Of a stretch of 64,000 nucleotides of DNA, positions 7,061 through 64,000 are shown piece after piece; the stretch's first letter is position 1; every line of letters starts with the position of its first letter. The position numbers were made by a program, and so were the translations under genes. The DNA is taken from the NCBI GenBank assembly GCA_050084515.1, contig CM114271.1, forward strand, positions 17,546,001-17,610,000, given 5' to 3'. The notes below the pieces were generated by a model. That model did not search any database, was not told the origin of the DNA, and saw nothing but the letters and a program-made list of their open reading frames with translations. Source of the DNA: Blasia pusilla. Its lineage: Eukaryota.

Positions 7061-7872
7061 GACACCAATTTAGAATTCAGATCTTTCCCATTCATCTCTT
7101 AGCTCACAGATGACTAAAACTCCATAACATAATGAATATTTCCATACCTGCAGATAATGCTTCAATTGTAAGAGCACTCATATGATTAGTCTTCTTCTTA
7201 TTGAAAAAATATATGTCTTCAACGCCCTACTACAACAAGCCATCTGTACACATAGAACAGCATGTCAACATCTCTCAGAAGCAACAAATCGTACAATTCC
7301 TAACTCTCTCCATGCATCATCCTCTTCACCATCCCATTTATCTCTCAGATATATTGTAGTGGTGACTTACTGCAGTGAGCATTCAAACAATAGAATAATG
7401 AACCTTTCAAATCTTAACTGGATTATTGCTTTTGAATATAATTGAATTTTTAGACAATGCATAGATTGATGTATCATGAGTAAGGCTAGAATACTCCTTG
7501 CCACAACTAATGCTCACCCTCAACAATTTCATACTTGGATAGAGTGAGTCAAAAGAGTTAGGATTGCTTTGGCGAGAGCCAAAGAGACAGTAATCATTAA
7601 GTAGCATTTTGAATTTCTTATTTCCCAAGTCTTATTCTCTACTCCAACCACATATTCAACAAATGCACAAATGAGAGGATCTGGTTACTTACCGACGCCA
7701 CTTCACCGGTAAGACTTGCCACAACTGATGCTCACCCTCAACAATTTCATACCTAGAAACAATTTCATACCTAGACACAGTGAGTCATGAGGGTTAGGAT
7801 TGCATTGGAGAGAGCTAGAGAGACTGTTATCTTTCTATATCAACAAATGCAAAACTCAATGTGTTAATCCAA

Positions 7873-11644
<3,772 letters not shown>

Positions 11645-12769: not shown

Positions 12770-12879
<110 letters not shown>

Positions 12880-13619
12880 ATGGATGGGGCATCCCCCATT
12901 GTTGCCCCATATTCCAGCAGAGTGGTATGCAACCATGAGAACAGACCCGTACATATTTGATGTGAATAGCTTTGGGCAATGAATCTATTCTACATAATAT
13001 ATTCAACAATTTTGATGTAATGATCTTAGCAATACGAGTACAAGAGCTTTGGGCTATGAATCTATGCCACTGAATATGTTGAATAGTTGTGGTGTAATAA
13101 TATATCTTAGCAATACCACAAGTATTTTTTAGGTAATTGATCAAGGTCCAGCAAATGAGGTTGCTCGAGCACTCATTTCTTAATATTCCAGTTCTATGTC
13201 AGAGGTGCAATTTGGTCTTGGATTTTATCTCCCTACCCATAGCATTGAGAATTTCATGAGAAGAAATAAGCATATTACCAAGGTGTTAAGATGTGGCTAA
13301 GCTGAGTCCTTTAGAATCTAGCCATGGAGATGACTTGTCAGTACCAACAACATACTTACCATATGGTCACAGCACCGTACACCCTATTCTCCCTTCTTTT
13401 GATTCTTTTCTTGTAGAAAACTCTGAACCAATAACTGTTCCTAAAGCAAAAAGAAAAAATACACTTCACGCAAATATTGAAATAGTGAGAAGCCCCCAAT
13501 CAGACATTGTATCACCCCCCAAAGTTGAAATAGTGGGAGATCCTTCAGAAAAAACATGTGCTATTGCTTTAGATCAGCCTTGGACATCTACCCGCTTCTT
13601 TTTGTCATAGGTGATCATC

Positions 13620-14430
13620 GCGAACATCTATACTAGTACAAATTTATGATGCTGCTTGCTTAAACATTCTTATCTCTTCTTGTATCCGATCTGATCCAAT
13701 CACTAGAATAGAAGCCCTTTCTCTTTCATATGCTTAACAATCGAAAATTGCTATGGAAGTTGAAATTGCCTCTCTTCATGAAAATAAAACCTAGATCCTT
13801 GTACTAAATCCTAAAAAGCGGAAATCATCCACTTATATTGCCAACATAGTCTCTTGTAAATGGGCTTTTGAGATCAAATGGTCTTCTTCAGGAAGTGTTC
13901 TCAAGTACAAGGCCATCTGGTAGCTAAAGGCTATTCATAGAAAGAAGGAATTGATTACAAAGAAACATTTTCTCTTCTCATAAACATCATTTCTCTCACC
14001 AAGGTTCTTTCCATGGTTGTTGTTTGCAACGCTGAACTACATCAAATGGACCCTAAAATTGCTTTTCTTCATGGTGGTCTACAAGAAATCATGTACATGC
14101 ATCAACCTCCAGGTTTTGAGGCAATTGATCAAGGTCCAACTTGTATGTCTTCTGAAGAAAGCTCTTTATGGATTAAAGAAATCCTACTGAGCTTGGTATC
14201 AAAAGATGGATGGATACTTGAGCACTGTAGGTTTTCTAAGAAGTACTTATGATCCTTGTTTGTGTCAGAATTTTAGTTCTAGATGTTATAAACTTTTCAA
14301 TCCCACTACAAAACTTGTTCTTCTTAGCAAAGATGTTGTCTTCAATATTGAAGATACTCCTTTCTCCTTTTCTACTGTTTGTCATTCTTCCTATTCTCCC
14401 TTCTTTGATTCAATATCTGACTCATCTTTG
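13620..14430 (+). mobile_element. Ty1/copia fragment A (RT N-terminal part, decayed)
   Basis: Translates to AMEVEIASLHENKT, SCKWAFEIK, LVAKGYS.KEGIDY, ELHQMDPKIAFLHG, which are typical copia RT motifs. Confidence 0.8.
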
Positions 14431-28294: not shown

Positions 28295-28925
28295 TCAACT
28301 TGAGGAATAACTTTCCAAAACACAACCGACCTCAGATTGCACCAAGCTATGGCGCTGTGTGTGGACGGTGATTTGGCTGCAATTGAAGATTGCATCTCCG
28401 AAGGCTACCAATACACCCTCTACGTACACAATGGACGTCAGTTTTATACCAACTGCACAATTTTGGGAAGAGTCCTCTTTGTTTCAAAATTGTCACCTGC
28501 TCGTGAGATCCGGTCGCGCTGACGCTCTGACAAGCGTATTGATTGCTCAAGGTCGGACCGATCTAGGCCAAAGCACAGGCTTGGTGTTTCAGAATTGCAT
28601 TATTTTGGGCATGCCAGATTACATGGAGGATCTGCGCAAAAATCCGGCATTGCTTCAATCCTATCTCGGGTGGTCGTGGAAGAGGTTCTCCCGGACGATG
28701 TTCATCTACTCCTACCTGGACTCCGTGATATAACCCGAGGGATGGCTTGCTTGGGATGGAACTTTCGCGTTGGATTCACTCTTCTATGGGAAGTATCAGT
28801 TGTGTAGCCCTGGAGCGGTTGCCGCCTCTAGAGTTCCGTGGTCCAACCAGCTCACCTCCAACCAGGCCGATGCTTTTGGCGTCGAGAGATTCATCCAAGG
28901 AAATCGTTGACTTCCCTACGCAGGG
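28295..28925 (+). pseudogene. Pectin methylesterase (pectinesterase) C-terminal fragment
   Basis: Across frames: HQAMALCVDGD...EGYQYTLYVHNGRQFYTNCTILG; FQNC...IAQGRTD...STGLVFQNC...YLGWSWKRFSRT; GWLAWDG...LFYGKY...PG...RVPWS...FIQGNR. These match plant PME catalytic-domain motifs. Frameshifted and 5'-truncated. Confidence 0.85.
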
Positions 28926-33008: not shown

Positions 33009-36000
33009 AGAAGGGTTGTGAACTTGAAAACGTTGCTCAATATTGCACGTATTCCTAACTTTGAAGAGAATCACATTTGAATTCTTAGGTTGGGAGATCG
33101 TATTCATAGTATGATTGGCCGTTTTAGTGTTGGACTTATGAATGTTGTTTGTCCGACTTGCAATGCTCTACATGGGAAGTGTGAGAGAGTGAAGTATACT
33201 AGGTTTATAAGCTCGCCTTTTAGTATGTGTTGTGGGCATGGTAAGATTCAATTACCATATTTGACAACTTCACCTTTTATACTAGCAGAATTACTTTCTA
33301 GTATGAGTTCAAAAAGTCTTCATTTTGTGCCTAATGCACGTGCCTATAATAATGCTCTTCAATTGGTATCTACTAGGGCATATGTAACAGAGCAACGAGG
33401 CGATACAGGAAACTTCAGGATTCAAGGTGATGTATATCATTCTATTGGACCTCTTCATGCTGAAAGTGGTGCTCGTCCACAATTCGCGCAAATTTATATT
33501 CATGATGATGAGCATCAGATGGAACATAGAAGAAGGATTATGAGTGGAGATTATCGGGATCAATTGAGGCCAGAGATCTTAAGGGGATTACAAGATATAT
33601 TACATGCCCATAATCCATATGTGGCTTTATTTCGAAATGTGGCTATTGATCCATGTAATTCTGACTTTCATATTGTTCTTAAGGGTAGTAAGCGAGGTCC
33701 TGATGCAAAACGATACACCTTGCCTGTTGCTTCAGAGATTGCAGCTATCTTGCCTAGAGATGGGAGTGATCCAATAGAAGGACGTGATATTATTGTTCGC
33801 TTACATGGAGGAGGGATTCGTCGTCTGTCAGATTTGAATGAAGCATATATCCCATTGCACTTTGTTTTGCCTTTTGTTTATGGTGAAGCAGGTTGGCATC
33901 TTGGGATACCTTTGCAAGTGCAACATGATCATAGAGATGATCTGCCGTTAAGAGGGGATGCTATGATGGACGAAGATAGAGATGATATTGTACAAGGAGG
34001 AATTTAAGGTGAGGTTACCACTTATGAGGCGAGTTCAAAGACCATTACAACTTTACAATTTGCTTCATTCAGACTTCAAATGCGAGCTAACGCTATGGAT
34101 AATAATCGGTTGTTGAGGTTTGGTCGTCTTACTCAAGAATGTATGGTGGATATGTAGGCGACTATCAAAATGCAACGGCTAACTTGGATACGATTGCATC
34201 AAAAAGAGTTGAGAGCTGATTTATACCAAGGTGTCAGAGATGCCATGACTCGGTATGATGTGAATGGTCAAGGCATAGGGAGACGTATTATCATATCTTC
34301 GTCTTTCATAGGAGGACCCCGTCACATACATCAATTGTACCATGATGTTATGGCCATTGTGAGACATTTTGGGAAGCCTGACTACTTTTTGACTATGACT
34401 TGCAATCCTAAATGGCCAGAGATTACTGTTGCTCTGCTTCATGGGCAATCAACGTCTGATCATCCTGACCTGGATATACGTGTTTTCCAACAAAAGAAGA
34501 AGGATTTTTTGAGACTTATATTGGATAAGCATATTTTGGGTCGAGTGATAGGATGCATTCATATGGTCGAGTTCCAAAAGAGAGGGCTACCACATGTGCA
34601 TATCCTAATTATTCTTGCTTCTGAGGATAAGCCAAGGACAACCTCTGATTTTGACGATATTATATTTGCTGAGATTCCGAATCCCATGACTCATCCTAGG
34701 CTATATTCTATTGTAAGAAATTGTATGATTCATGGTCCGTGTGGAGTAGCACATCCAAATGCACCTTGCACGGATAAAACGACAAAAAAATGTTCCAAAG
34801 GATACCCAATGCCCTTTGCATAAATGACAATGGAGAATGAGGATGGATATCCTATTTATAAGAGGTAATTGATTGGTTTTGTTGTTTATTTCGTCATTTA
34901 ATGTTCTTCTATTAATGTGCTATCTATTTTCCCCAACTATTAACATACTTCTATATATGTTTATGCAGGCCTGATAATGACAGATTGATTAATAAGTCAA
35001 ATCATGACTTTGATAATCGTTGGGTGGTTCCATACAATCTAATGTTATGTACTTTATTTGATTGTCATATCAATATGGAGATAACAAATAGTATCTTTGC
35101 AATAAAGTACTTTTATAAGTATGTGTACAAAGGATCTGATGCCATATTATATACCTTGTCAAATACTACATCAAGAGAGGATACTATTGATGAGACATCA
35201 TTATATCTTGATGCAAAGTATTTCGATCCCTTCTATCTTTCAAGATCTCCCAATTTTTCCTATGATATTATGTGGGACTCTAACAATATTTATATTGTAT
35301 GGTATAAAGGTAGGTTTCTTCTTCAGAAGCATGTTGGCGAATCTTCAAGTTTAGTCTACATGCAGAGCAACCAAGTATTGTGAGATTGATTGTTCATCCT
35401 CCAGACAGTCAAACGGTATATTTTCATGGGCAAGATTCATTGGGTAATATTCTGGAGCGAAGTAAGGAAACCACTCTCACTCAATGGTTTGCAACAAATG
35501 TTTCTGATTCGACTACGCGACAATATCTTTATTTGGAGTTCCCTTCTCATTACTCTTGGAATAAGAAGCAATAGCATCTGCGTAAACGTGCACAAAAAGG
35601 ATGTGGACATCCTATTTGACGTCTGTATATGACAAATCCAAGTTAACTTTCTATTCTTTGTTAAGATACAATTATTAAGGAAAAATTTGAATTACTGTTA
35701 AAATCATATTCATGCTTCCTTCCTAATACTTTTTTTAGGCTAATCCTAGCTGAAGGGGAGCGTCATTGGTTACGATTACTTCTCCATCATGTGAGAGGAG
35801 CTCAATCATATCAAGATTTGAGAACCATCGATGGTATAGTTTATCCTACCTTCAAAGAGATTGCTATTCAGATGGGACTTTTGGAGGACGATAGAGAGAT
35901 CTTTTCTTGCTTTGAAGAGGCGGTTGTCATTTGTATTGGCTATTCATTACATCTACTCTTTGCCATCAGTCTTCTATATAATACACCTTCTCTTCCGGCT

Positions 36001-39000
36001 ATGGTGTGGGGACATTTTTTGGTTCCATTGACAGAAGATCTTCTACATCAAAGGCGTGAGGTAATATGGATGCCTTTTGTTAAGTCAATTTTTTTCTTAT
36101 TTCTCTTATGAATATTTTAGGTACTTTATTTACGTTTTAACTTCTATATTTGTTCCTTGTAATAGAGAATTGGTATTCCAACCCTTCCATTGGATGTTCA
36201 TATTATTAATCTTGCGTTATTGGAGGTCCATTACCATCTTCAAGATCATGATAAAAGTATGGCGGACTTCCCCAACATGCCTCAACCAGATTTCAAAGCT
36301 CGTGATTTATCTATTTTCCGTCTAGAAGAGGAAGAGCTCTCCTACGATCATGATATGCTTTGTAAACGTGTGAGAGCAGGAGAGATGTCTTTAAATGATG
36401 GACAACGAGATATTTGGGAAATTATTTGTAATGCTTTTTGCGATATCTTACAAGATGCTCCACCTTATGTAAGTGGATATTATGTATAGTATATTTTATT
36501 ATTATTTCATTTACTCTTTAAATTTCTTTAACTTTTATTCTTTTAAAGTGCTTTTCTGTAACAAAAAATATGGATTTTTCAGGCAAAACTTTTCTTTATC
36601 GATGGTCCTGGCGGAACAGGAAAAATATTTTTGTACAACCTTCTTCTTGCAATGGTACGGAGCGAGGGTCATATAGCTCTTGCAGTTGCATCTTCGGGGA
36701 TTGCCGCTTTATTATTGGATGGAGGTCGTACTGCTCATTCTCAATTCAAGATTCCTATTAAAGTACATGAAAGTTCCACTTGCAAGTAAGTCTAGATTTA
36801 AGATTTCTTTTCCTTTTATGGCATGCATATTATTGTTTTCTTCTTTGATTTATCCTTCATAAATGTTCCTCACATATTGTTTTGTTATCGATTTTCCAGC
36901 TTATCGGTCAATAGTCATATGGCCCGCCTTATACAAAAGGCGAAGTTGATCGTGTGGGATGAAGCTCCTATGACCCATTGTCACGCATTTGAGGCCGTTA
37001 ATCATATTTTCCAAGATATCATGGGTTTGATGGATCCTCGATTACGAGACTTGCCTTTTGGGGGGGAGATCGTTTTATTTGGTGGTGACTTTCGACAACT
37101 TCTTCCAATTGTTCGTCGTGGAGATCGTGCCACAGTTGTGCGTGCAACACTTAGGAGATCTCTTACTTGGTTTGACGTGAGATTATTGAAACTCACTACC
37201 AACATGAGAGTTTATACTGTACAAGGTATTAAAGAATAAACCTAATATTTCACCTTTTTCATTTCATCTGGTTTTTAATTTTATTTAATATTTACTTATT
37301 CCTTCATCTTATATTTTTTTTTCAGGATATGCACGAGAAGAGCAAGAAGCGTTTGCAACGTGGTTATTAGAGGTAGGAGAGGATCGTGTACCGTTACATT
37401 TGGACCTTGGAGAGGATTTTATACAAGTTCCGGATGCGATAATTGTTAAAACCACAAGGATCAATGATCTCATTGACATTTTTTATGGACACGATGTTCA
37501 TAAGTGGAGCGACATTGATTTCTTGAGGGGTACATCAATTTTGTCAACCAAGAATACTACTGTGGATATTATAAACGCGTAATCATGTCTCGGTTTCCAA
37601 GAGAGGTAATATTTATATTCTTGAATATCATTATTATATTTTGATTGTTGTATTGCTACATTTTTCTATCATCTCTCTTATTATTAATGATTTATTTTGT
37701 TTTTGGAGGAGCATACTTTCTTGAGTGCTGATTCTGTTTCCGACGATGAGATGAGACTTGTTTATCCAACAGAATTTTTGAATACATGTTTACCATCTGG
37801 ATTTGCATGTTTACGATTTCAACTTCCTATCCGTCCTGCTTTTGCAATGATTATTAATAATTCTCAATGTCAAACATTAGATAGAGTTGGTATTTACTTG
37901 CCCAATCCAATATTTTCTCATGGGAAATTGTATGTTGCCTTGTCAAAAATAAACTCGAAGAATTCTATTCATATTATGACAAATAATAAAAATGTTACTA
38001 ACAAAATAAATATTTACATTAGAAGTGTTATATATAATGAAGTGCTAAATTAAATTAAAATAACATTATATGTATGAAATTTTATATTAATATGCATCTT
38101 CATTTATTGGTATGGATGATATGTTTAATTTTATATATACTAAATTTTGATGCCCATGCATGGCACGGACTTACTAGTAACGTTTACTCCCAAGTTTATA
38201 AGACAGATTTAGAAATTGCAAGAACCCATAGAAACATGTGAAAGTCCAGCGGGACTTCACAAGGACGGGTTTCTAGGCTTTTAGGGAGGAAGCATTAATA
38301 GTTTTGTAATTAGTCGGTCCGTTTGCTAGCTCGCTAGCTAGTCAGTTAGTCAGCTGGATACGAGCACAGGGGGAGCAAAGGAGCAAAGCGGCCTTTAGTG
38401 ACATCCACCGGAGGAGCTTGACGTTAGGCAACAGCTGTAGAAGTGGTTGGACGCAAAAAGGCATATGGAAAGTGGACTAGTGAATCTGGGAAGTGTCATG
38501 CCATGTCATTGGGGAGGACGAAGCACTGGAGAGCTTCCTCACTCACTTTGCTTCTGGCAAAGATTTCTTGCCTGCCTTGCTTCGCTTTGCTCCGCTTGGC
38601 TTGGTTGTCGGTTTCTTGAGTAGGCCGGGTGGCTGGCTGTCTGTTAGGTGGGAGGAAAAGGAAATTCTTCTCAGGGTGTGGATCTTATTTTATTGTGTGT
38701 GCATCACATTTCGTCTGAGCATTAGGCGACTTCTTTCCATCTGTGCCGTGCTCTGAACCGCACTTCAGTACTGCCTGATTGTGTCCGCCTGAGTGAGTGA
38801 CTGTGCATCCGTCCGTCCGTCCATATGTGGGGCTGATAGTGTTCCTGTCACTGACTTTTGCATTCTATGTATGTAGCTTGGACTGATTCCATTCCTTACT
38901 GCCGCGGTTGTGGTCTTTGCCGTGGTGCTTTTTCGCCGTCTGCCGTCATAGGCTGTGTATCCATTTGGCGAGGAAGGGAAACGTGGAGGGCGATTTTGTC

Positions 39001-50426: not shown

Positions 50427-53203
50427 TGTCGTGCGCATAGACATCGCTACACAACATACATCACAGTCACCGAAAACACACACAAACACGCACGATCCCA
50501 TGCTAACTTATGGCATCCAAACAACGAGACAAGAAGTACCAAAATATCTCCAATAAAATAAGATGAAATCTCTCTCACAACACCATAACTCTCACATGTC
50601 TCTCTCAATGTCAAACCAAACCAAACTAAATGTCCTCTAATGAGAGGCTTGGGTTACACTCACAAGGCAAGGGACCATAGTTCTTCCCCCTCGTGCCAAG
50701 AGGTTCAACAAAGAGAGAATGAGCTCTCCCAAGCTCTCTCCCAAGCATGGTAACCTATGCTCCCAAGTCACCTCCTTGGCTCTTGACCTGATGTAGGAGG
50801 TCAAGGGTAACTTCCCAAAATAGAAAAGTGACCATATATTCAAAATAATACTTATCTAAAATAGTAAGTTTCTCAATATGGCTCCAAGTACCGTAAATGT
50901 TCGGAACATGACTCGACGCACAGTTACGCACATGGTCCTTCCAAACCATACCATCGCGTCCCTCCAATAAGAGAACACTTGATGGCAAAACCTCACGCAC
51001 TCTCAAGATGGTGCACCCTACAGTCACATCCAATGTCGTGGGTGCCGTATGCTACAAGTAGACATAGTATCCCTAATGAAACATGTGGATAGTAGGTCGA
51101 TAACCACCTCCCCAAATAGTCGCATACCTCAATGTATCCCAATGCTACGCAATCGTCAAGTTCTCAAATGCCATGGGCATCACTCTTCGAAATAAATCAG
51201 CCCTCTGAGAACATGCTCGCATCCATACATCAGGGTCATCAAGGTTCAACACCTCACCAACATCTAGACAAATGGTCGTAGGTAAATCTGGCTCTTGGCC
51301 TTACAAAAGCAAGTACGGTGAGAAAGACGCTAAGGATGCCTGCTAGCTGAATCTGTATCCCATCGCCAACCACGGCAATTGGAGGTCCCAATCTCCTAGG
51401 TGACCTCTCTGCAAGCCATAGTTGCGTAACCCTCTCTTCATTGTCTGCACAACTCGCTATGCTAGTCCATCCGACTTAGGATGATCTCGCGATAGTGCGG
51501 TGGTCAATCAGTGCCTAATCATACAAGGCCTGAAACTCCCCGCGGAACTCTGTACCCTGGTGTGTCAACACCTCAGCTATTGCTCTGTAAAGACTCAACA
51601 TCCGATGTAGGAAGGTATACGCTACTCCCTCACTCGCTTTGTCACGCAATGCAACCAACTCTATCCACTCGGAGAAGTGCTCAACCATCACCAACACATA
51701 ACGACTATGGTGCTCCGTCAGAGGTAAAGGTCATGCCAAATCCAAACTCCAGCTATAACCTAAATCCATGATCAGAAGTGGATGCAACTATGGAGTCAGA
51801 GCATTGAAGGATGTCCGGACTCGATCACGCACCATACATCTGGCAACAAACTGCTGAACGTTAGTCTGCATGCCTCGCCACCAATACTAAATCTAGAGCA
51901 AGATGTACGTCCGCTTAACTCCAAAATGACCCAACTCCTCATGGGCAGGACGTACCAAACGTACTCTCTGCAAAGGATGAGGCACTACACGCACTCTATC
52001 ATCTTCCCACACTCGCAACACATGTGTCCCCTCCCACGGGAATCGTCTAGCTTGCTGTAGGATCCGATCTCGCTCTCTAGCACTCACTGTGCTCGCGATG
52101 CTGGCAGTACGCATGTACTCCAAGACTATTCCATCGTCGTGAATATCTCGGCCACCTGTCGTCTCCTCACCGGCTTCTAGATCTAAGGACTCTCCATCAG
52201 ACCTTGCCATCAAAGTCTCAGTAATCTGGCTCTCTATAGCCAAGAAGCCCAAATAGTTGACGCGTGCCATCCTGGCATGAATTGCTAATCACTCTCTCCA
52301 TGCCATCGAGCTCCAATTGCATCTCGTTGACTCGGGCATGGATTATGGCTCAGACCATCTGCATCCTGGTTGAGCATCCCAGATCTATGTACCACCTGGA
52401 AGTCATACTCCTGCAACAAAAGAGCCGACCTCGCAAGCTTCCTTGTAAGCTTGTCGGACTCCATCAACCACTCAAGTGGTTGATGATCAGCAATGATGGT
52501 GAAGGGATTTCCAAATAGATAACATCAGAAATATGCGACAGCCCACACTACAGCCAAGCACTCACCCTCAAACGAGCTATACTTCGCCTCTACAACGTTG
52601 TTCGAGCGACTAGCGTAAGCCACCACAAACTATCTACCATCATTTTCATGCCGGGTGAGCACAACTCCAAGCCCCAACATGCTCCAATCGGTATGCAATT
52701 GGAAAGGACGCCCCCTGATCGGTCTCCTCAATATGGGCGCGGATGTCAATATGTCCTTGAGTAGGTGAAATGCTCTCTCCTCCTCATACCCCCAATACCA
52801 CTCCTGATCCATCTTGGTCAGCAAGGTTAGTGGTTTTGCAATCGAACTAAAACCCTTGACGTACCGTCGATAGAAATTCTCCAATCCCATGAATGCACAA
52901 ACTCGACTCACATCTATAGGGTGTGGAATGCGTGAAATAGCCTCCACCTTTGTCTACTATACACCAAGGCCCCTTGGGTACATAGTCGTAGAAGAACTTG
53001 CACTTGCCTAGGTGTAGCTCTAGCCCATGTACCTACAATCGTCAAAACACCTCCTCTAGATTACGCTCATGCTCCTCAACCGTGATGCTAAAGACTACAA
53101 TATCATCAATATTACACCTAGCAAAATCCAAACCTGCCAAGATCCAATCCATGATCCTTTGAAACTCAGCCGAGGTGTTCTTTAACCCGAATGGTAAGAA
53201 CCG
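50427..53203 (-). mobile_element. Older antisense copy of the same gypsy-like family, 3' part (RT C-terminus, RNase H, integrase, terminal A-B repeat)
   Basis: Minus-strand ORFs 52630-52947, 52285-52467, 51893-52270 and 51515-51697 closely match 60299-62650. Terminus TGTCGTGCGC at 50427 is the reverse complement of repeat B, followed by part of repeat A (to about 50887). The PHD region is deleted. Confidence 0.9.
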
Positions 53204-53720
53204 TGTCATGTGTTTTAGGATAGATCGGTGAGATCTAATAGAGCTAGAGCGCCTTTGTGAGTAGTGGAGGACACGCTCAGTAGGTCGCGGATGACCTGCT
53301 GAGGCCTCGGGAAACCTGAGAGAGCCGGTTTCCCCCTTGTTTCGGCTCATTTGGAGCCATATTGAAGAACTTACTATTTTAGGTAAGTACCATTTTGAGT
53401 ATATGATCAACTTTATATTTTTGGTAAGTGGCCCTTGACCTCCTACATCAGGTCAAGAGCCAAGGAGGTGACTTGGGAGAATAGGTTACCATGGAGAGAG
53501 CTTGGGAGAGGGGAGGGGTATATCTCAAGGAGAGAGAGCTTGAGAGCTCATTCTCTCTTTGTTGAAACTCTTGGCATGAGGCGGTGGAGCTATGGTACCT
53601 TGCCTTGTGAGTGTAACCCAAGCCTCTCATTAGGAGAGTGGGTTTGGTTTGACATGAGAGAGAGTGCACACCTTTGAGAGCTATGGTGTGAGATGGTGGA
53701 GAGAGAGATTGGATCCTACT
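53204..53720 (+). repeat. Terminal repeat A1
   Basis: Matches 62961-63471, with roughly 15-20 differences by eye. Confidence 0.92.
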
Positions 53721-54294
53721 TTACAAAGAGAGAATGAGAGAGTGAGAGAGCTTCATGGGGGAGCTCATTGGTCACTCGCTGTTTTTGCAGGTTGGGGACC
53801 GTGTTCCCCGTTCAGCGGCTCATGGGAGTGCTCACCGGAGCAAGGGCAGCTTTCATTATTATTTGCATTTGCTGATTTTTCGTGTGGAAGAGTGGCGCGC
53901 GGAAGCGCTACCCAATTGTTGATAGGGATTGAGTATGGGTGCGGGTTGCCCCATGCTGGTGCTCTTGGAAGCACCATGAAGCTTGCTGATTTGTATTTAT
54001 ACAAATGTTACATTTTCGTTGGGAGAAATCAGCGCGGGAGCGCTGCCGGATTTTGTGTAGGAGAAAGAGAAATTGGGCTTTACTACAGTCCCTGTTTGTT
54101 TTTACTGAAGTGTTCGATTCTAAATATTTTTTCATACTAGCGTAGATCGTGAAGCTGTGCACGCTGTGCAACAAACAATGCGCAATTTGGAGTTGCAAGC
54201 AAAAAGTTATGGTCAATCTTGTAAAGCTGCCATTGCTAGGCGATTTTTAGGGTTTAATTGTGCAAACCCTAAATCAGCCGCCACACCGACCGCG

Positions 54295-54460
54295 GCCGTC
54301 GCCATCATAGTCACCGTCACCGGTCACCGGTCAACCTTCACCTTCGAAGGTCAACCGTCACCGTCAAACATCAACGGTCAACGTCAACAGTCAACCGTCA
54401 CCGTCGACGGTCGCCCGTCACCATCAATGGTCAACCGTCACTATCAACGGTCCACCGTCC
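54295..54460 (+). repeat. Short-unit repeat array (ACCGTCA / GGTCAAC) in the element 5' leader
   Basis: Many reiterated CACCGTCA/CGGTCAAC units, partly self-complementary. Confidence 0.75.
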
Positions 54461-55498
54461 ATTGTCCACCCTTTGGGTGCCATTTCCGCCATTACGGAGT
54501 GGAGGGTCTTCCACGACGTTCGTTGATTCCTTGACTTGCGTCGCCACCACGTACTTTGTTTTGGCCGCCACCGTCATCGCAGTTTCTTCATCAACCAGTG
54601 ATGGGAGATGACCTTCGGTTATGGTGTTTGAGTTTTGATTTCATGTTGCTATGTTGTGATTGGTAGCCGCTGGACGACGATCGAGTATCGTGCCGTGATG
54701 CCCGTAGCCGCAACGCGCCGCCGATTGCCGCGCCGTGCCGCTCGTGGCCGCACCGCACCGTCTCGATCGTGGAGCCGCACCGTCATTGTGGAGCAGAGTG
54801 TGGGTTTATTGTTGATTGAGGAGGGTATGCCGCCGAGTGCCGCATCCCGCCATCGAGGGCCGTGCCGTTCGTAAAGCCGCCGTTCGTGCCGCCGCAACGC
54901 CGCACGTTTATTTGGGACCGCATTGTCTATCGAGGAGTTTTGAGCGTCGTGACGATGGGAGGAGAATGACTTGCTGATTGGAGGAGTTGTCTCCACGATC
55001 GAGTTGGGGTCGAGATTTGCGATTCTTTGAGAGCGACATTCACATGTGTTCGAGTTACCCATTTCGGTCCTTTACCCCTGCACGTGTGAGGGATTAGGAT
55101 TTGGGTAGTTTATTTGGGGATATTGGGTGTGTGGATGCTGAGAGCATCATTTATGTATATGGTTTAGGGGACATAGACCTGTGTGGGATGTCCGAAGTTG
55201 AGGATAGGTTGTCGATGAGATGATAGCCTGGTCGATTTGCCATGCCGCGTGTTGTTGCACGTTACACGTCTCGGGGAGAGAGAGTGTAGATCGAGTGCCG
55301 CATGTTTGGGATGAGTGATTGAGGGATTCCTCACGAGGTTCAGAGTGATCGGGTGAGAGGGGAACGAGGGTCATCACGGAGTCCGTTCGGGACTTTGAGA
55401 GGCGAGGTGGTGAACCCGAGAGTAGCTCGAGAGGTTTTACGCGGAGTGGCGCTAGGTTTCGAGGGTCTCCACGTGAGGGACTACCTCGACCTCCTTCT

Positions 55499-57960
55499 GT
55501 GTCATTGTTAGACGAGGGGGAGGGTATAGAGGAGTTTGTGAGCACTTCGCCACACATTGTGAGTGGTCCTACCAGTTGGGCGTACAAGATGGACGACCGG
55601 GGTAGAGGACCGCGTAGGTTTTCAGGTGCAGTAGGCACGATTGAGTTGCACAATTTTATAGTAGAGTTTAGGAGTTGGTGCGACTCCCGGGGCCAGAACT
55701 CTAGAGAGTTCAACCCGTTCTGACATGGAACGGTATGTTCCAGCATTTAGAGGGGGCGCCCATGGATGATTACCATGAGTTCTCTCAGAGATATGCATGT
55801 GAGATCGAGGCGTGGAGGCTCTACTATGACCCACATTATGTGTCATGGACGGAGCCGTTCCCAAATGAGGAGGATGAGTCAGGAGAGGCTACTGCCTCTT
55901 CCACTAGTGACGTTTTAGGAGGGGTCACTCGACGACGGGAGCGATTGCACCGTCTAGTCGGGTTCGCCCCGAGGTTCAACCCGTGGTTGAGTTCTTTCTT
56001 TGAGTTGAGGGCGAGCTACCAGGGGGTACGGACGGAGAAGTTGCGGAGCATCCACGAATTCCAAAGGCGCCCGGGTGAGAGTTTGCGTGAGGCTTACACT
56101 CGCTTGCACCGGTTGATCAACGTCACTCAGGGGGTGATAGAGGCTCAGGCTATCCAGTCATGGTACGCGATGCTGGACCGGACTCTGCGGACACGGGTGC
56201 GGGAGGGGGTGCTTCTTATGAACACCTCCCCTACGTTGAGAGATGTTTTTAGGACCGCCGAGAACATTGAGCGCAACATGGCGGAGAAGAGCGTAGCCAC
56301 CATGGGTTCTGGGCGAGAGCGATCCACGATTATCGCACCACTGCATAAACAACGTGGACCCCGAGATAGGTCGACTGTGGCACCACGAGCTCAGGGAGGA
56401 TACCGGGAGGCCGTGCCACAGAGACCTGCGCCTTCATATGCGGCTCAATAGCAACCGCCTACTATTACTTGTTGGTCATGTGGTGGAGCCCATCATCAGC
56501 GCGATTGCACTCGTCAGGGTCATGGACGTGTGCCTTAGCATGGAGGAGGAGATGGTGCTGCACCCGGAGGTTATCAGTGTGACTATTGTCAGAGGTATGG
56601 TCATACACGCGCCATGTGTTTCAGTTTACATCCTGAGTTACGTCCGGACCGAGGGCCAGAGAGGGCACCAGAGCGAGTAGCCCGTCCAGGTGGGCCTAGA
56701 GATCGTGCACCAGGTGGTTCCGTTGGGGGACGAGTAGCAGGAGTTGCCCGACAGGGTGGTGGAGCTGCTCGTGGAGGAGGTAGAGTACCACCACGTAGAT
56801 GCATCGAGGGAGACGTCGGATGTGAGGTTGGGATGGCTGCTCAGATACAACAGCTACAGGAGCAGATTGCCACTATGGCATTGAGGTTACCCGATGCCGG
56901 ATCCGTGGCATCGACATCATATGGAGCAGCCAGAGATCTGGAGGATCTTGGATGGATGTGCGGGGTTGCCTAGATGGAGGCCGCTACAATTGTGACGCGT
57001 GGAGCGGCCGCAGAGTTGGATCCACAGCGAGGGGAAGCCAGAAGGTAGACTAGGCTTCCTCAGTCTTTCACGTTGTCCGAAGCGATGAGGACCCCATCGA
57101 TGGGTCCTCATCAAAGTTCCTGGAGAGTTGGTGATGTTGTTGGTGTGCAGGCACAAAGGGCGATGGGAGAAGCGAGTGCGACGACTCCTATTGTTGATGC
57201 TGAGGAGAGGCATGTGTCGAGCACGTTGTTGGGGGCGGCCACCGTTGTGTACCGCACTCCTTTATTTTCTGCTTCCGATGTTATGACGTTGGGGGGTACG
57301 CCCGCCGAGGCTTATCGGCTGGCCGCTTCACTATGTGAGCGCGGAGTTGGAGTTCCTGCATCACGTTCAGAGGTGATTGCAGAGGAGGTGATGGACCTGC
57401 CCTTGGAGCGGATGCTTGGGCCGTCCACGTCAGATTCATGGCAAACTGCGGCTGCTAGGATGGCGGAGATGCCCGCTAGACCCACGATAGAGCGTGCCAT
57501 GGCTTCTCCTGGTGTTGTGTTGCTGGATAACCGAGGAGAGGTCTTCCAGTTGGTGAGTCCTGGAGGTAGAGCTTTTAGTCCGCAGCGCGTCTTGTTGGAT
57601 TAAGAAGCGCAACCCTTGATGTTGGGGAAAGCGTCATTCAGAGGATTGGGCTTGACGAGAGCCGATGTGGAGCGTTGTCCATTCCGGATCCAGACATCCT
57701 TGGGTGGAGCAAGTACCACACAGTATATCACCTGACAAGAGGTCGTGGTGAGGATTCGCCCGGGACATCCTGAGATGAGTCCGTGAAAGTGCGCCAAAGC
57801 GATAGTGGCCCGATCACGAGTCCTCGACGTCTTGGTTGGTGGAGCAGTGTTATACCCGATGGGGTTTTCCCTGGATTACTGGGAGGAGTCAGCGTCCTAT
57901 AGACCAGGATGGCAGTCAGATGATGGGCGCCTTAGCTCATTACCCGTTTGATTCACAAGT
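55499..57960 (+). pseudogene. Gag (capsid-like region plus two CCHC knuckles) and aspartic protease of the gypsy-like element
   Basis: RFSGAVGTIELHNFIVEF; FQRRPGESLREAYTRL; knuckles CWSCGGAHHQRDC (about 56469) and CDYCQRYGHTRAMC (about 56578); protease site RVLLD*EAQPL (stop at 57601 where D-S/T-G is expected). Confidence 0.8.
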
Positions 57961-58311
57961 GCAGTGATCGAGCAACGGCAAGGAGAGATGGCGACCTTAG
58001 CAACATTTAGTAGTGCCATCACTTGGCCTAGTGATTTGATTGAGGGACATGTCCATGCAGAGGATACTCCCGTTCCTGAAATTTCTATGGAGAGGAGTGT
58101 TATGGTAGCTGCATCATTCCATGGAGGAGAGGTGCCGTTGTGGGGCTCGATTGAGGAGCTTCAACGATTGGCAGATGAGCACGTGCAGACCGCGTGGAGC
58201 GAGGCGTTTGCACCAAAGCGTGATGAGTCTGAGGAACCCGAGGTAGCAGGGAGTGCTACGATGACACCCTTGGATACCACACCCATTGTGTGGTGTACCC
58301 CGGAGGAGGGT

Positions 58312-59260
58312 ATTCAAGTGTTAGATCTCTTTGGAGGGATTAGCACCGGGTTAGCTGTTGTTTTGCAGGCAGGAGTGCGAGTACAGCAGTACCTGTATGT
58401 GGAGAGTGATGATGTTGCGAGGCGCGTCTCATTACGACATGTGGCACAATTACGCCTACGTTTTCCCGACTTATTGTCTGCGTCCGCAGTACAGGGGTAC
58501 GGGAGTTCCCTACCGAGGGATATTTTGTTGTTGGGGGTGTAGGACTTAGAGCGGGTAGGGACCATTGATTTGGTCATTGCCGGTTGGCCATGTCAGGGCC
58601 AATCGAGTGTTGGACGAGGCAGCGGGTTGGCTGACACTCGATCCAGGTTGTTTTGGGAGATGTTGAGGGTCTTACGGCAATTGCAGGAGCACCAGTCTCG
58701 TTCTCCAGCCTACATTCTGGAGAATGTGCCGATCTTAGGAGACTCCAGGTCACGGGTGGTGACGAGTGCTCATCAGGTGCGTGCCTGGATTGGCCCAACA
58801 GTGTTCTTGGATGCGGCGAGTGTAGGTTCTAGAGCCCATCGCCCGCGTCTATGGTGGACCAACTTGGTGCCCCATGCGGTGTTATGGAGGGCGTATGCGA
58901 GAGTGGAGCGCCCCTCCCATTTGTTAGTGGATTCCATTGTGGATCAAGGTCGTTGATCACAGGCAGTGAGGCATGATGATCGACCACCGTTGACTGTGGT
59001 CAACAGGGTAGGCAGGCCGCGGGCAACCTTGCCCACGTTTGTGAGTTTTCCCGCTTCCTATGCATACAAGGAGGCCGGTTCTGGCTTGGTTTGGGATGAC
59101 CAGGTTCAGCGGTTGGTGGAGCCCAACGCCGACGAGAGAGAGCGAGCAATGGGATTTCCCACAGGAGTGACGGCAGTACCATCAGTGTCAGAGGCATCAC
59201 GACGCCATGTCTTGGGTCAAGCGATGGACCTGAAGTGCTTGACATGGATCCTCAGCTTGG
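58312..59260 (+). pseudogene. DNMT3-like C5 cytosine DNA methyltransferase domain within the retrotransposon polyprotein
   Basis: Motif I VLDLFGGISTG, II YLYVESD, IV IDLVIAGWPCQ (catalytic Pro-Cys at 58588-58593), VI YILENV, VIII RAHRPRLWWTN, IX/X ERERAMGFP...RRHVLGQAM. In frame with gag-protease; interrupted by TAG 58540 and TGA 58954. Confidence 0.9.
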
Positions 59261-59697
59261 GAGTGGCTGAGCAGCGTCGTATGAGATCGTGACAGATCAC
59301 ATCGGTTGCGTTGGTGAGCCCCATGCCTACCGAGACGGTGGAGTGGAAGCGGTGGGGCGAGACCCGAGGAGATCTACGATCGGGAGATCGGGAGAGACAC
59401 CCTTGGACTTCTTGGGATGTTTTGGTGCACGCAAGGAGATGATAGCCACAAAGATCGGCGTGGTTTCGGCACCGCACGTGGAGGAGATCGAGTTTGCAGT
59501 TGGTCGTAGGAGAGCGGCCGAGTGTTGTTGTTCGAGACGGGGTTGTACCATAGCAACCACCGATACCCGCGCCGGAGAGTCCTACCGTAGTCACGATGGA
59601 GACTTGGGAGCCAGATATGGGCCCTAAGTTGACAGGATGAGAGCGGCGCCGAATACATCAGTTCCTCAGGAGTTATAGGAGCTGCTTTGCATTTAGC

Positions 59698-62650
59698 ATG
59701 GAGGATTTGGGTACGCTGAAGGGACCGGGGATCCGCATTGAGTTGTCGATTGATAGATCTTCCGACGACCCTCAGTCTGATGATATGGAGAGGGCTCGAT
59801 TGAGTAGGAGCCAGGACTTGGTCGGGAGAGGACTAGTGGAGATGTCGCATGGGGAGTATGCATCCGCCCGCTTTATCACGCCCGCCAAGAAGGATGTGCA
59901 TGGCAACCGGACGGATAGGCGGATGTGTGGGGATTACCGACCTATCAATCGGCAGACGAAGTCCGATAGGTATGCCATGCCCACCCCTGAGGAGATCTTT
60001 GATGCGATTGGTCACGCAAAGGTCTTGATTCATTGATTTATGAGCCGGATACCATCACCGCCTATCAGATTGGAGGATAGGCGTAAGACGGCATTTTGGG
60101 GCATCAATCCTCACGGGAAGGATTGTTTGTACCGGTGGCGTTCTTACCATTTGGTAAAGAACGCGCGGCTGAGTTTCGAGGGTCATGGATAGGATCTTGG
60201 CTGGTCTGGATTTTGCTAGGTGTTATATTGATGACATCGTAGTCTTTAGCGCCACGGTTGAGGAGCATGAGCAACATCTAGAGGAGGTGTTTTGACGATT
60301 GCAATTACATGGGCTGAAGCTACATCCAGGCAAGTGCCAGTTCTTCTACGACCAGATTGAGTACTTGGGTCATACAATATATCCAGGAGGCCTTGGTGTT
60401 CAGCAGACGAAGGTAGAGGCTATCTCACGCATTCCACGCCCTACAGATGTGAGCTGTGTTTGCGCATTCATGGGATTGGCGAACTTCTATCGGCGATACG
60501 TCAAGGGATTGATTCGATTTGGCGTGACCTTGCTGACCAAGGTGGATCACGAGTGGCACTGGGGGGATGGGCAGGAGCGAGCATTTCAGTTGCTCAAGGA
60601 CAGGTTGACGTCCGCATCCATCTTGAGGAGACCGATCAGGGGCCATCCTTTCCAGTTGCACACAGATTGGAGCATGTTGGGGCTTGGAGCGGTGCTCACC
60701 CAACATGATGATGAGGGTAGAGAGTTTGTGGTGGCTTATGCTAGCCGCTCGAACAACGCTGCAGAGGCGAAGTACAACTCGTATGAGGGTGAGTGCTTGG
60801 CTGCGGTGTGGGCTATCGCGCATTTCAGGTGTTACTTATTCGGCAACCCCTTTACCGTCATCACTGATCATCAACCACTGAAGTGGTTGATGGAGTCCGA
60901 CAAGCTTACAGGGAAGCTTGCGAGATGGGCTCTGTTGTTGTAGGAGTATGATTTTCAGGTGGTACATAGACCTGGAACGCTCAACCAGGATGCAGATGGG
61001 TTGAGTCGTAACCCATGCCCGAGTCAGCGAGATGCGACTGGAGCTCGATGGCATGGAGAGAGTGATGACGAGTCGGTGCCAGGATGGCACGCGTCAGCCT
61101 ATTTAGGCATGTTGGCTATGGAGAGCCAGAGTGTGGAGACTTCGATGGCGAGGTCTAGTGGAGAGTCCTTGGATCCCGAGGCCAGTGAGGACACGGCAAG
61201 TGGCCGAGATATTCATGATGATGGAGTAGTCTTGGAGTACCTTCGTAGTGGCAGCGTTGCGAGCACCATGGATGCTAGAGAGCGGGATTGGATCCTACAG
61301 CGGGCCAGACGGTTCCGTTGGGAGGGGACACATGTTTTGAGGGTTTGGGAGGATGGCAAAGTACGCGTAGTTCCGCATCCTTCGCAGAGAGCACGACTAG
61401 TGCAGCATGCCCACGAAGAGTTGGGTCACTTTGGGGTGAAGCGGACGTACAACTTGCTCCAGATTCAGTATTGGTGGCGAGGCATGCAGACTGACGTTCA
61501 GCAGTTTGTTGCCAGGTGCATGGTGTGTGATCGGGTCCGAGCATCGTTCAATGCTCCGACTCCACAGTTGCATCCGTTACCGATCATGGGCTTAGGGTAT
61601 AGATGGAGTTTGGATTTTGCAGGACCTTTGCCCTTGACGGAGCGACACAGTCGTTATGTGTTGGTGATGGTCGAGCACTTCTCGAAGTGGATCGAGTTGG
61701 TTGCATTGCCTGACAAAGCGAGTGAGGGAGTAGCTTATGCCTTCCTTGATAGAGTGCTGAGTGATTATGGCACACCGGCTGAGGTGTTGACAGACCAGGG
61801 TACCGAGTTTCGCGGTGAGCTCCAGGCCTTGTGTGATCAGGCGCTGATCGACCACCGCACGACTTTGCGAGATCATCCCGAGGCGGATGGATTAGCGGAG
61901 AGAATTGTGCAGACAGAGAAGAGGGGTTTACGCAAGTATGGCTTGCAGAGAGGTCACCTAGGAGATTGGGACCCCAGTTGCCATGGTTGGCGACGGGATA
62001 CAGATTCAGCAGGCAGGCATCCTTAGCGTCTTTTTCACCGCACTTGCTACTTTATGGCCGAGAGCCAGATTTACCTGCGGCCATTCGTCGAGATGCTGGT
62101 GAGGTGCTGGACCTTGATGACCCCAGATGTATGGGTGCGAGCTTGTTCTCAGAGGGCTGAGTTATTTCAGAGAGTGATGCCCATGGCGTTTGAGAACTTG
62201 GCGATTGCACAGCATCGGGATACGTTGAGGTATGCGACTATTCGGGATGGTGGTTATCGACCAACTATCCGGAGGTTTGATCAAGGAGATTATGTCTACT
62301 TGCAACAGACGGCACCCACGATGTTGGATGTGACTGCAGGGCGCACTATCCTTAGAGTGCGTGATATTTTGCCATCAGGTGTTCTCTTGCTGGAGGGACG
62401 CGATAGTATGGTATGGAAGGACCATGTGCGTAATTGTGCGCCATGTCACCTTCCTAACATTGATGGTACAGTAGATCCGAGCTTAGAAATAGTTCCTGCA
62501 GGCTTGCATTGTATGTTGTGTGGTTCTGCCCGTGGTGCGGCCACAATGCTAGGCTGTGATGGGTGTTCAAGAGGATGGCATATGGCATGTTTGACGCCAC
62601 CTCTCACTAGGGTTCCTCAGGGACGATGGATGTGTCCCAGATGTACATAG
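59698..62650 (+). pseudogene. RT - RNase H - integrase (HHCC, DDE) - C-terminal PHD finger
   Basis: RMCGDYRPIN; YIDD at 60224-60235; LHTDWS...GAVL...VVAYASR...ECLAAVW...TDHQPL; HEELGH...CMVC; SLDFAG, TDQG, GLAER; terminal CMLC...CDGCSRGWHMAC...WMCPRC. Confidence 0.92.
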
Positions 62651-62831
62651 AGTAGGTCGTTCTACATTCCGACTTGTGTCTGTGACATGGATGACAAGAA
62701 GGCGACTAACGATGGGGCCACATGAGCACCCGACCTTCTTGCTCTTAGCGTCCGAGAGATGTATATCATGGTAGGTAGGGATAGATGGCTATCTGGAGTT
62801 AGAGGGACCTAACCACCAGCTAGGGGGGCGA

Positions 62832-63599
62832 TTGGAGATATTTTGGTACTTCTTGTCTCGTTGTTTGGATGCCATGAGTTAGCATGGGATCATGCGTGTT
62901 TGTGTGTGTGTTCGGTGACAACGATGTATGTTGTGTAGCGATGTGTATGCGCACGACAAGTGTCACGTCTTTTAGGATAGATCGGTGAGATCTAATAGAG
63001 CGCCTTCGTGAGTAGTGGAGGACACGCTCAGTAGGTCGCGGATGACCTGCTGAGGCCCCGGAAAACCTGAGAGAGCCGGTTTCCCCCTTGTTTCGGCTCA
63101 TTTGGAGCCATATTGAGGAACTTACTATTTTAGGTAAGTACCATTTTGAGTATATGATCGACTTTATATTTTTGGTAAGTGGCCCTTGACCTCCTACATC
63201 AGGTCAAGAGCCAAGGAGGTGACTTGGGAGAATAGGTTACCATGGAGAGAGCTTGGGAGAGGGGAGGGGTATACCTCAAGAAGAGAGAGCTTGAGAGCTC
63301 ATTCTCTCTTTGTTGAACCTCTTGGCATGAGGCGGCGGAGCTATGGTACCTTGCCTTGTGAGTGATACCCAAGCCTCTAATTAGGAGAGTGGTTTTGGTT
63401 TGACATGAGAGAGAGTGCACACCTTTGAGAGCTATGGTGTGAGATGGTGGAGAGAGAGATTGGATCCTACTATTGGAGATATTTTAGTACTTCTTGTCTC
63501 GTTGTTTGGATGCCATGAGTTAGCATGGGATCATGCGTGTTTGTGTGTGTGTTCGATGACAGCGATGTATGTTGTGTAGCGATGTGTATGCGCACGACA
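62832..63599 (+). repeat. 3' terminal repeats B1 (62832-62958), A2 (62961-63471), B2 (63472-63599)
   Basis: B1 and B2 both read ATTGGAGATATTTT...GCGCACGACA; A2 matches A1. A purine run AGGGGGG (62822-62828) precedes B1. Confidence 0.9.
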
Positions 63600-64000
63600 G
63601 CCGCCACTAGTACAAACAATGAACATTTTGGTTCGTGAGGATCGATGCCCCAAAATGCCATCTTCTGCTTGTCCTCCAATCTGATAGGTAGGTGATGGTA
63701 TCCGGCTCGTAAATCTAATGAACTGAAGACCTATGCATACCCAATCATATTTAAGATCTCCAGAGGGGTGGGCATGGCATACCTATCGAACTTTATTTGC
63801 TGATTGATAGGTCGGTAATCTCCACACATCTGCCTATCCGTCCTGTTGCCATGCACATCCTTCTTGGCGGGCATGATAGTGGCAGATGCATACTCTCCAT
63901 ACAATATCTCCACTAGTCGTGCTCCAACCAAGTCCTGCCTCCTACTCTGAATCAGAGCCCTCTCCATATCACTGTACCTGTAGGGATTTCGAAAGATTGG
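63600..64000 (-). mobile_element. Upstream continuation (RT N-terminal part) of the antisense gypsy-like copy
   Basis: ORF 63731-63967 (GEYASATIMPAKKDVHGNRTDRQMCGDYRPIN...YAMPTP) matches 59698-60036 and joins the RT sequence left of 53203. Confidence 0.9.

Follow-up and report, generated by a model that had tools for sequence, protein, structure and literature searches.

The closest described relatives of the element reported here are the KnitGypsy-Dnmt3 retrotransposons of the charophyte Klebsormidium nitens, in which a Gypsy-type Pol carries an intron-less, non-rearranged DNMT3-like domain (PMC5890265). De Mendoza et al. 2018 placed the K. nitens copies in the DNMT3 clade, reported Ka/Ks values below 0.2 and few copies in the genome, and proposed that the element methylates its own cDNA; the legend of Fig. 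4c describes DIRS-like repeats but Gypsy domains. The same paper reports that the domain of SymbioDIRS-Dnmt3, from Symbiodinium, methylates CG de novo in yeast and is, according to the authors, an independent acquisition. Described Gypsy-DNMT3 elements have so far been these few K. nitens copies, and enzyme activity has not been demonstrated there. Here we describe element B, a retrotransposon copy in a stretch of 64,000 nucleotides from Blasia pusilla (contig CM114271.1, positions 17,546,001 to 17,610,000 of the forward strand; hereafter the window). From its sequence, element B very probably belongs to the Gypsy-DNMT3 family. We also consider it likely that element B is a decayed Ty3/Gypsy-type member of that family in which the DNA methyltransferase (DNMT) is an inherited, selected module, with self-methylation as its proposed role.

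A sequence-only reading of the window had placed a methyltransferase at 57964-59292, between the protease (PR) and the reverse transcriptase (RT) of a retrotransposon polyprotein. When the translation is read through its stops, the motifs of C5 cytosine methyltransferases appear in canonical order within 57952-59292. The domain and its motifs, the latter taken from the read-through translation, are as follows.

58300..59292, plus strand: DNMT3-like C5 cytosine methyltransferase domain, motifs I-X (Pfam, motifs, phmmer, profile, AlphaFold2, Foldseek)
58330-58350, plus strand: FGGISTG, motif I
58582-58596, plus strand: GWPCQ, motif IV
58720-58728, plus strand: ENV, motif VI
58840-58857, plus strand: RPRLWW, motif VIII
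from 59134, plus strand: ERERAMGFP
59212-59229, plus strand: LGQAMD

The proposed ordered motif set was borne out by this translation and by Pfam. PF00145 matched the piece at 58543-58956 with an E-value of 1.3e-11 (45 bits, cut-off 22) and the X-read-through protein P0001 with an E-value of 3.9e-11 (43.4 bits), scores well outside what chance would give. The placement needs one correction: a methyltransferase domain does lie at 57964-59292, but its catalytic part starts near 58300, and 57964-58300 is a linker. The motif columns are invariant or near-invariant in two family alignments (A1 and A2). Three in-frame stops fall inside the domain in the window copy, at 58540, 58954 and 59290.

The methyltransferase shares its reading frame with Gag and the protease, as had been suggested. 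All six relevant open reading frames (starts at 55735, 56614, 57073, 57964, 58570 and 58966) lie in frame 1, in which the stop-to-stop pieces are 55705-56451, 56539-56973, 57049-57603, 57952-58542, 58543-58956 and 58957-59292. In a tblastn search, the Marchantia protein P0005 (gag-PR-DNMT) aligned to 55714-59421 as one frame-1 segment with 49% identity and 11 stops. This alignment and the translation agree with an integral, in-frame, intron-less polyprotein domain between protease and RT. The domain also lies directly upstream of RT, as claimed, since RT homology begins at 59590.

Comparison with solved structures placed the domain nearest to DNMT3. A phmmer search returned DNMT3A (1.3e-14), DNMT3B (1.3e-11), DRM (4e-6) and M.HhaI (3.5e-4), and DNMT2 was not among the matches listed. 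A profile built from 15 family members matched DNMT3A at 9e-26, DNMT3B/C at 5e-24, DRM at 8e-15, DNMT2 at 3e-9 and HhaI at 1e-7; no DNMT1 or CMT chain was among its 55 matches listed at 1e-3. An AlphaFold2 model of the window domain, made from alignment A1, had a mean predicted local distance difference test (pLDDT) score of 88.7 and a predicted template modeling (pTM) score of 0.90. The Foldseek matches listed for this model were DNMT3A, DNMT3B and DNMT3C only, the best being 6f57_D (E 1.1e-18, TM 0.81 by target). For the ESM Atlas model of a Calypogeia homologue, DNMT3A clusters were likewise nearest (TM 0.73). Sequence ranking and predicted fold therefore support the assignment of the window domain as DNMT3-like, in agreement with the sequence-only reading. 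Pfam found neither a PWWP nor an ADD reader domain in the element. However, some DNMT3s are described without companion domains in PMC12344493, so their absence does not decide membership in the catalytic family. No named host DNMT3 was among the listed matches of the protein searches, whether by sequence or by profile.

The profile match to DNMT2 bears on what the domain might modify. A DNMT2-like enzyme would methylate RNA, either the genomic RNA or the primer, rather than DNA, and the authors of PMC5890265 raised RNA methylation for a DNMT borne by a long interspersed nuclear element (LINE). We regard this as very unlikely for the window domain: DNMT3A/B/C score at least 15 orders of magnitude better than DNMT2, and they fill every listed Foldseek row.

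The domain order of element B is gag-PR-DNMT-RT-RNase H (RH)-integrase (INT)-PHD. The coding features were located as follows.

53204..63599, plus strand: element B, whole retrotransposon copy, 10,396 bp, ends TGTCATG...CACGACA (self-BLAST)
55604..56973, plus strand: Gag with two CCHC zinc knuckles (~56464-56622) and a frameshift near 55714 (tblastn of Marchantia P0005, translation)
57480..57950, plus strand: retropepsin-type protease, broken (translation aligned by eye with P0005)
59590..60352, plus strand: reverse transcriptase, with a frameshift near 60180 and stops at 59638, 60034 and 60293 (Pfam, tblastn)
60560..60940, plus strand: RNase H (PF17917 3.8e-35, PF17919 1.3e-31)
61379..61864, plus strand: integrase, H2C2 zinc domain and DDE core (PF17921 2.6e-18, PF00665 3.3e-13)
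62510..62644, plus strand: PHD finger at the C-terminal end of the integrase frame (PF00628 1.5e-11)

This is the Pol order of Ty3/Gypsy elements, PR-RT-RH-INT with an H2C2 and DDE integrase, with PR assigned by homology only. The protease proposed upstream of the methyltransferase is found by alignment to homologues, two of which (P0032 and P0208) carry PF13650, but no Pfam protease family is recognized in the window copy itself. Pfam also found no gag family in the window copy, with a zinc-finger match only below threshold; matches to zf-C2H2_10 and SpeFL fell below the Pfam cut-offs and were disregarded. The integrase/PHD reading frame terminates at a TAG at 62648.

Relatives of the domain were sought with two protein searches (57 matches in the first; 221 in the second, 120 of them listed) and a profile search (57 matches). 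The best match in the first search came from Calypogeia fissa (70% identity), with others from Sphagnum fallax and Closterium sp. NIES-53; Marchantia polymorpha accounted for 14 of the 57 rows. Among the matches listed in the second were proteins of C. fissa, M. polymorpha, M. paleacea, Riccia sorocarpa, Sphagnum troendelagicum and S. tenellum. The profile search added K. nitens KFL_009030040 (P0206; E 2e-123) and a Cymbomonas protein. P0206 and the window domain agree at 120 of 275 residues (44% identity, E 4e-61), and the partial protein carries DNMT at 256-621, RT-RH at 699-1105 and INT at 1232-1408; homology and domain order both link it to element B. In a domain scan, the Marchantia and Closterium proteins read gag-CCHC-PR-DNMT-RT-RH-INT, and P0208 is an uninterrupted protein of 2358 amino acids with PR, DNMT, RT, RH, INT and PHD. 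The suspected link to land plants is upheld, the nearest named relatives being liverworts and Sphagnum mosses. The rarity of the arrangement had been overstated: dozens of family proteins are already present in public Marchantia, Calypogeia, Riccia and Sphagnum annotations.

We also scanned metagenome contigs, in which 338 stretches matched and 204 encode a relative, and kept 80 loci. PR, DNMT and RT occur in that order in 52 of these loci. PR lies just upstream of DNMT in 62 of 80 and RT downstream in 62 of 80, the remainder being cut by contig ends. A PHD finger follows the integrase in 27 of the 40 loci that have an integrase match. Copies collected elsewhere thus keep the domain, which bears directly on whether the arrangement in the window is a one-off capture of a host DNMT3, a host pseudogene lying beside a transposon, or an assembly chimera. 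The window taken by itself would allow such an origin, in that it holds a single copy of the domain, the equivalent in a neighboring antisense copy being expected beyond 64000. However, the same order recurs in the 52 independent loci, in the M. polymorpha rows (14 of 57) and in the K. nitens and Closterium proteins. The domain also shares one frame with gag and PR, and its depth is comparable to that of the rest of the element in two DNA runs. We consider a one-off origin refuted, with next to no probability left to it.

When 78 full-length domains were placed in one tree, that of the window fell in a 21-row clade that holds all named bryophyte sequences (Shimodaira-Hasegawa-like approximate likelihood ratio test support of 100). 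As judged from these comparisons, the lineage spans K. nitens, Closterium, liverworts and Sphagnum, and the window domain is in the named-bryophyte clade. No metagenome locus is close to the K. nitens protein (at most 52% identity among the 80). For one set of 26 proteins we then compared two trees, one of DNMT and one of RT-RH, both unrooted and made by a quick method. Both trees group K. nitens with P0205 and P0052, Marchantia with P0034, and Closterium with P0212. In the RT-RH tree, the K. nitens, Closterium and Marchantia elements lie on the same side of a branch with 98% support. This congruence fits a domain inherited with the element rather than repeatedly captured.

A second architecture, RT-RH-DNMT-INT-PHD, was found in two of the 80 loci (L055 and L075) and in 16 of the 26 proteins of the paired trees, where a single branch splits it off (support: DNMT tree, 91; RT-RH tree, 98). 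Members of this sister lineage (P0045, P0048, P0215, P0219, P0222, L055, L075 and the Cymbomonas protein P0221) have, after the PHD finger, an extra 300-400 residues that match no Pfam family, and some of these tails have a DPFAGSG-like motif, noticed by eye in P0045. A 2026 preprint describes dual-methyltransferase "EpiLTRs" in Cymbomonas and places their DNMT near DNMT4. Two further observations concern the trees. In the DNMT tree, Sphagnum fallax is nearer to the Marchantia group than Calypogeia is, so that the element tree departs from the species tree; old paralogous lineages or transfer could account for this mismatch. P0106 carries the source label of a "Candidatus Obscuribacterales" metagenome-assembled genome and is probably a mis-binned contig, because it is placed inside the eukaryotic element clade.

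The pattern of substitution argues for selection on the methyltransferase. Four pairs of intact DNMT domains with a synonymous rate (dS) of at most 1.72 gave ratios of nonsynonymous to synonymous substitution (dN/dS) of 0.14 (L020-L021, dS 0.26), 0.12 (L020-L022, dS 1.42), 0.105 (L021-L022, dS 1.47) and 0.18 (L001-L004, dS 1.72), values that indicate purifying rather than neutral evolution, the check that the sequence-only reading had called for. A fifth pair with a finite value had a dS of 2.41; the other 23 of the 28 pairs are synonymously saturated, with a nonsynonymous proportion (pN) of 0.35-0.47. The window copy is at most 67% identical in amino acids to any locus and is too distant for a meaningful dS. 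For L020-L022, the RT gave a dN/dS of 0.03, which indicates that the methyltransferase is constrained, but less so than RT. Of the 78 full-length domains, 66 have PCQ and 67 have ENV. Together, the conserved order, the trees and these ratios support the view that the methyltransferase characterizes the family as a whole and is under purifying selection.

Selection on the domain need not mean that it methylates the element's DNA. It could be kept as a non-catalytic binder of DNA or chromatin, as a spacer within the polyprotein, or as an enzyme that methylates, in trans, the host DNA surrounding insertions. Several results lean this way: the DNMT evolves faster than RT (dN/dS of 0.12 versus 0.03 for L020-L022; median end branch of 0.5 versus 0.16), motif IV or VI residues are altered in several branches, and the K. 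nitens domain produced no methylation in yeast (PMC5890265). Human DNMT3B likewise failed in that yeast assay, though, and the authors called the outcome inconclusive. In addition, the window clade and most of the family retain motif I, which binds S-adenosylmethionine, together with the catalytic Cys, the Glu of motif VI and the arginines of motif VIII, and the model has the full DNMT3 catalytic fold. We therefore hold a selected role other than self-methylation to be improbable. Self-methylation is in turn a tentative proposal: that the domain methylates the element's own double-stranded DNA is a serious possibility, to which we give somewhat less than even credence.

If the domain does act on the element, the methyltransferase would be made as part of Gag-Pol and would travel with RT and integrase into the particle or pre-integration complex. 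There it could methylate de novo the element's double-stranded DNA, either as cDNA or once newly inserted. The protease may release the domain, as the sequence-only reading proposed. The integrase-borne PHD finger may recognize histone tails and in this way guide integration.

Several points weigh against the reading of element B as carrying an inherited, selected DNMT3 module that methylates its own DNA. The terms "DNMT3-derived" and "single acquisition" depend on score ranking, fold and the congruence of trees that are unrooted. An uninterrupted DNMT is present in only 8 of the 80 loci, and finite dS values were obtained for only 5 of 28 intact pairs, 3 of them from one sub-lineage. Motif residues are altered branch by branch: in place of PCQ, Closterium has ECQ and part of the second architecture has ACQ, and in place of ENV, the K. 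nitens-like group has EHV. KFL_009030040 is presumed to be a published KnitGypsy-Dnmt3 copy. The yeast result described above counts here too. Finally, the RNA described below stems from copies other than that of the window and is not necessarily productive, full-length mRNA.

The window copy is dead, as the sequence-only reading had recognized from its stops. It has 19 premature stops, 16 in frame 1 (55714-60036) and three in frame 2, in addition to two frameshifts. The protease active site is destroyed: in its D-S-G motif, a stop occupies the Ser position (57601-57603), and three more stops follow. Among the 40 best-supported of 1476 private differences, 21 are A/T in the window where the family has G/C, 4 are the reverse and 15 are transversions. 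A silenced copy whose methylated cytosines undergo deamination would be expected to show an A/T-ward bias of this kind. The private C-to-T type changes number 5 in CG, 7 in CHG and 9 in CHH, against 886, 680 and 2663 sites, and are too few to name a context. The metagenome loci look similar, with 1-13 in-frame stops per 310 codons and few frameshifts in 72 of the 80. Many stops with few frameshifts point to decay by point mutation, which is how methylated repeats would be expected to degrade.

The family is present in high repetition in the source organism, where it keeps the domain. Counting contig pieces at least 90% like the window over 55000-62800, we obtained 27,335 and 24,403 pieces in two DNA runs from different studies. 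Summed contig depth, which is not a copy number, was 7,100-8,800 over the methyltransferase, 10,200-16,100 over RT-INT and 3,900-7,800 in the first gag bins (run X1).

The family also gives sense-strand RNA, assuming the usual stranded library. Two raw RNA runs with the same species label were sampled (6% and 12% of the runs), and they covered the methyltransferase 20-50x and the integrase 64-191x. Nearly all reads had their first mate on the minus strand, as sense RNA does in a stranded library of the usual type. Of the 3131 and 2872 reads, only 8 in each run were at least 99% like the window, most being 90-95% like it, which indicates that the RNA comes from other copies. The stop at 58540 is replaced in all 34 of 34 RNA reads and in most DNA depth, and two positions in the broken protease motif likewise differ from the window in RNA reads and most DNA depth; stops 58954 and 59290 lie outside the best-supported 40 of the 1476 differences. 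A further set of RNA reads joins 59717 to 60769 (12 in X22, 21 in X23), skipping 1051 bases with ends GA..GC that are not intron-like. A deletion derivative without most of RT thus appears to be transcribed.

The repeats of element B are split. Its noncoding features, and those of an older antisense copy (copy A) on either side, are listed here.

53203..53720, plus strand: repeat A1, 5' terminal, 95.9% identical to A2 over 518 nt (self-BLAST)
54323..54459, plus strand: tandem repeats with 20-nt spacing, 5 overlapping copies, in the untranslated leader (repeat search)
62818..62830, plus strand: G-rich purine run, polypurine-tract-like, directly before B1, kept in 4/4 elements examined
62831..62958, plus strand: repeat B1, internal, 98% identical to B2
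62960..63471, plus strand: repeat A2, 96% identical to A1
63472..63599, plus strand: repeat B2, 3' terminal, 98% identical to B1
50427..53201, minus strand: older copy A, 3' part, with the C-terminal half of RT, RH, INT, PHD region, a partial A repeat and a B repeat
63602..64000, minus strand: older copy A, continuation, with the N-terminal half of RT, leaving the window

A classic model with two long terminal repeats (LTRs) was rejected, as the 5' end of element B is A only and the 3' end is B-A-B. The A1...B1-A2-B2 layout, the TGTCATG start and the G-run before B1 also occur in L042, L066 and L073, that is, in all four elements with both ends (4/4), and B1...B2 pairs are present in L048, L049 and L072 too. 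Split repeats were not found in ten other loci with enough sequence past the PHD finger. At the B1/A2 junction, element B resembles two abutted element ends (...CA, two bases, TG...). This pattern would fit a permuted two-LTR circle, to judge from the repeat sequences. We saw no evident tRNA-complementary primer-binding site after A1, by eye only. A Pfam scan of 10 sense-frame pieces matched no tyrosine recombinase family and found a DDE integrase instead, and membership in DIRS/PAT/Ngaro was rejected on these grounds. Element B was inserted within the RT of copy A, which is ~84% identical to it; in copy B, the homologous site could be read without interruption. The flanks are ACCG and GCCG, alike at 3 of 4 positions, and the termini are TG...CA. 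The methyltransferase of copy A would be expected beyond 64000.

Some further observations concern the same elements. The leader between A1 and gag is ~1.9 kb in element B. In element B, L042, L066 and L073, the element end ...GACA is conserved, like the TGTCATG start; the abutted-end spacing at B1/A2 is 0-6 bases, and A2 meets B2 precisely (0-1 base). L030, L032, L045, L053 and L060 likewise hold domains of another copy that lies antisense next to the first.

These observations invite a broader picture, in which bryophytes harbor live, high-copy, transcribed Gypsy-DNMT3 elements that methylate their own cDNA or insertions and form their split repeats through a circular or permuted intermediate and a DDE integrase. 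As a whole, we regard that picture as rather doubtful. If it were true, part of the de novo methylation capacity of bryophytes would be transposon-encoded. More immediately, the lineage reaches land plants and is highly repeated, with sense RNA, in at least one such genome. In bryophyte annotations, transposon copies are counted among the DNMT3 genes, and their sources name some of them "DNA (cytosine-5-)-methyltransferase." Because the lineage is present in the genetically tractable Marchantia polymorpha, what a transposon gains from a de novo methyltransferase is open to experiment.

The remainder of the window is mostly 33-42% G+C, whereas element B is 53-57%. The remainder holds a pectinesterase fragment (PF01095, 1e-16), a Helitron (Helitron_like_N, 2e-47) with PIF1 helicase pieces, a LINE (endonuclease and RT) and a tnp2-type transposase fragment, located at:

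28311-28733, plus strand
33081-38053, plus strand
8451-11644, minus strand
5376-5795, minus strand
25462-25854, plus strand

Long (CT)n/(GA)n runs lie near 7900, 12900 and 29000.

Among known methyltransferases, animal DNMT3A/3B/3C are the best sequence and fold match of the window domain, with motifs I-X unpermuted in both and a short region between motifs VIII and IX. In contrast to the window domain, which sits in a retrotransposon polyprotein without them, the animal enzymes have PWWP/ADD, and the fold alignments show only 21-23% identity. Plant DRM is a DNMT3-related de novo methyltransferase, which the family profile matches at 8e-15. It aligns by its C-terminal half only (residues 228-349 to profile 32-159), whereas the window domain is unpermuted. 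The DRM catalytic domain is permuted, so a half-length match is expected.

Chromoviruses are Gypsy elements with a chromodomain after the integrase. Like element B, they have a chromatin-reader module fused to the integrase C-terminus, but the reader is a chromodomain in chromoviruses and a PHD finger in element B. PHD fingers are reported as accessory domains of several Chlamydomonas transposons (PMC8557442). With PAT/Ngaro elements, for which split direct repeats of the form A1-B1-A2-B2 are described (PMC4157794), element B shares the A1...B1-A2-B2 layout, with internal repeats downstream of the last coding domain. PAT/Ngaro elements use a tyrosine recombinase, as described there, whereas element B has an H2C2 and DDE integrase, TG...CA ends and a short flank duplication. 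SymbioDIRS-Dnmt3, like element B, is a retrotransposon whose Pol carries a DNMT3-type domain. Unlike element B, it belongs to the DIRS elements, has a tyrosine recombinase and comes from a different host kingdom.

The nearest system remains KnitGypsy-Dnmt3, which has a DNMT3-like domain inside a Gypsy-type Pol open reading frame, as in element B. K. nitens P0206 and element B both read DNMT-RT-RH-INT. The repeats of the K. nitens element are DIRS-like by its figure legend, and those of element B are split direct repeats by sequence; the published Ka/Ks below 0.2 stands beside a dN/dS of 0.105-0.18 in the four intact pairs described above. The two differ in motif VI (EHV in P0206, ENV in the window domain), in copy number (few in K. 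nitens according to the 2018 paper, highly repeated in the source organism) and in the PHD finger, which follows the integrase in element B and was not detected in P0206, a partial protein. Those relatives of the window clade that have names are bryophytes, unlike the charophyte K. nitens. A literature search within one limited collection of papers, supplementary tables excepted, found no publication on bryophyte Gypsy-DNMT3 members; in the parts consulted, PMC12344493 and a 2026 preprint mention "streptophyte" Gypsy-DNMT3 only via the 2018 paper. The Gypsy-DNMT3 kind itself is thus already known from K. nitens, and what is new is a clade with land-plant sequences, its high repetition and transcription, the PHD finger after the integrase, and a description of the split repeats at the sequence level.

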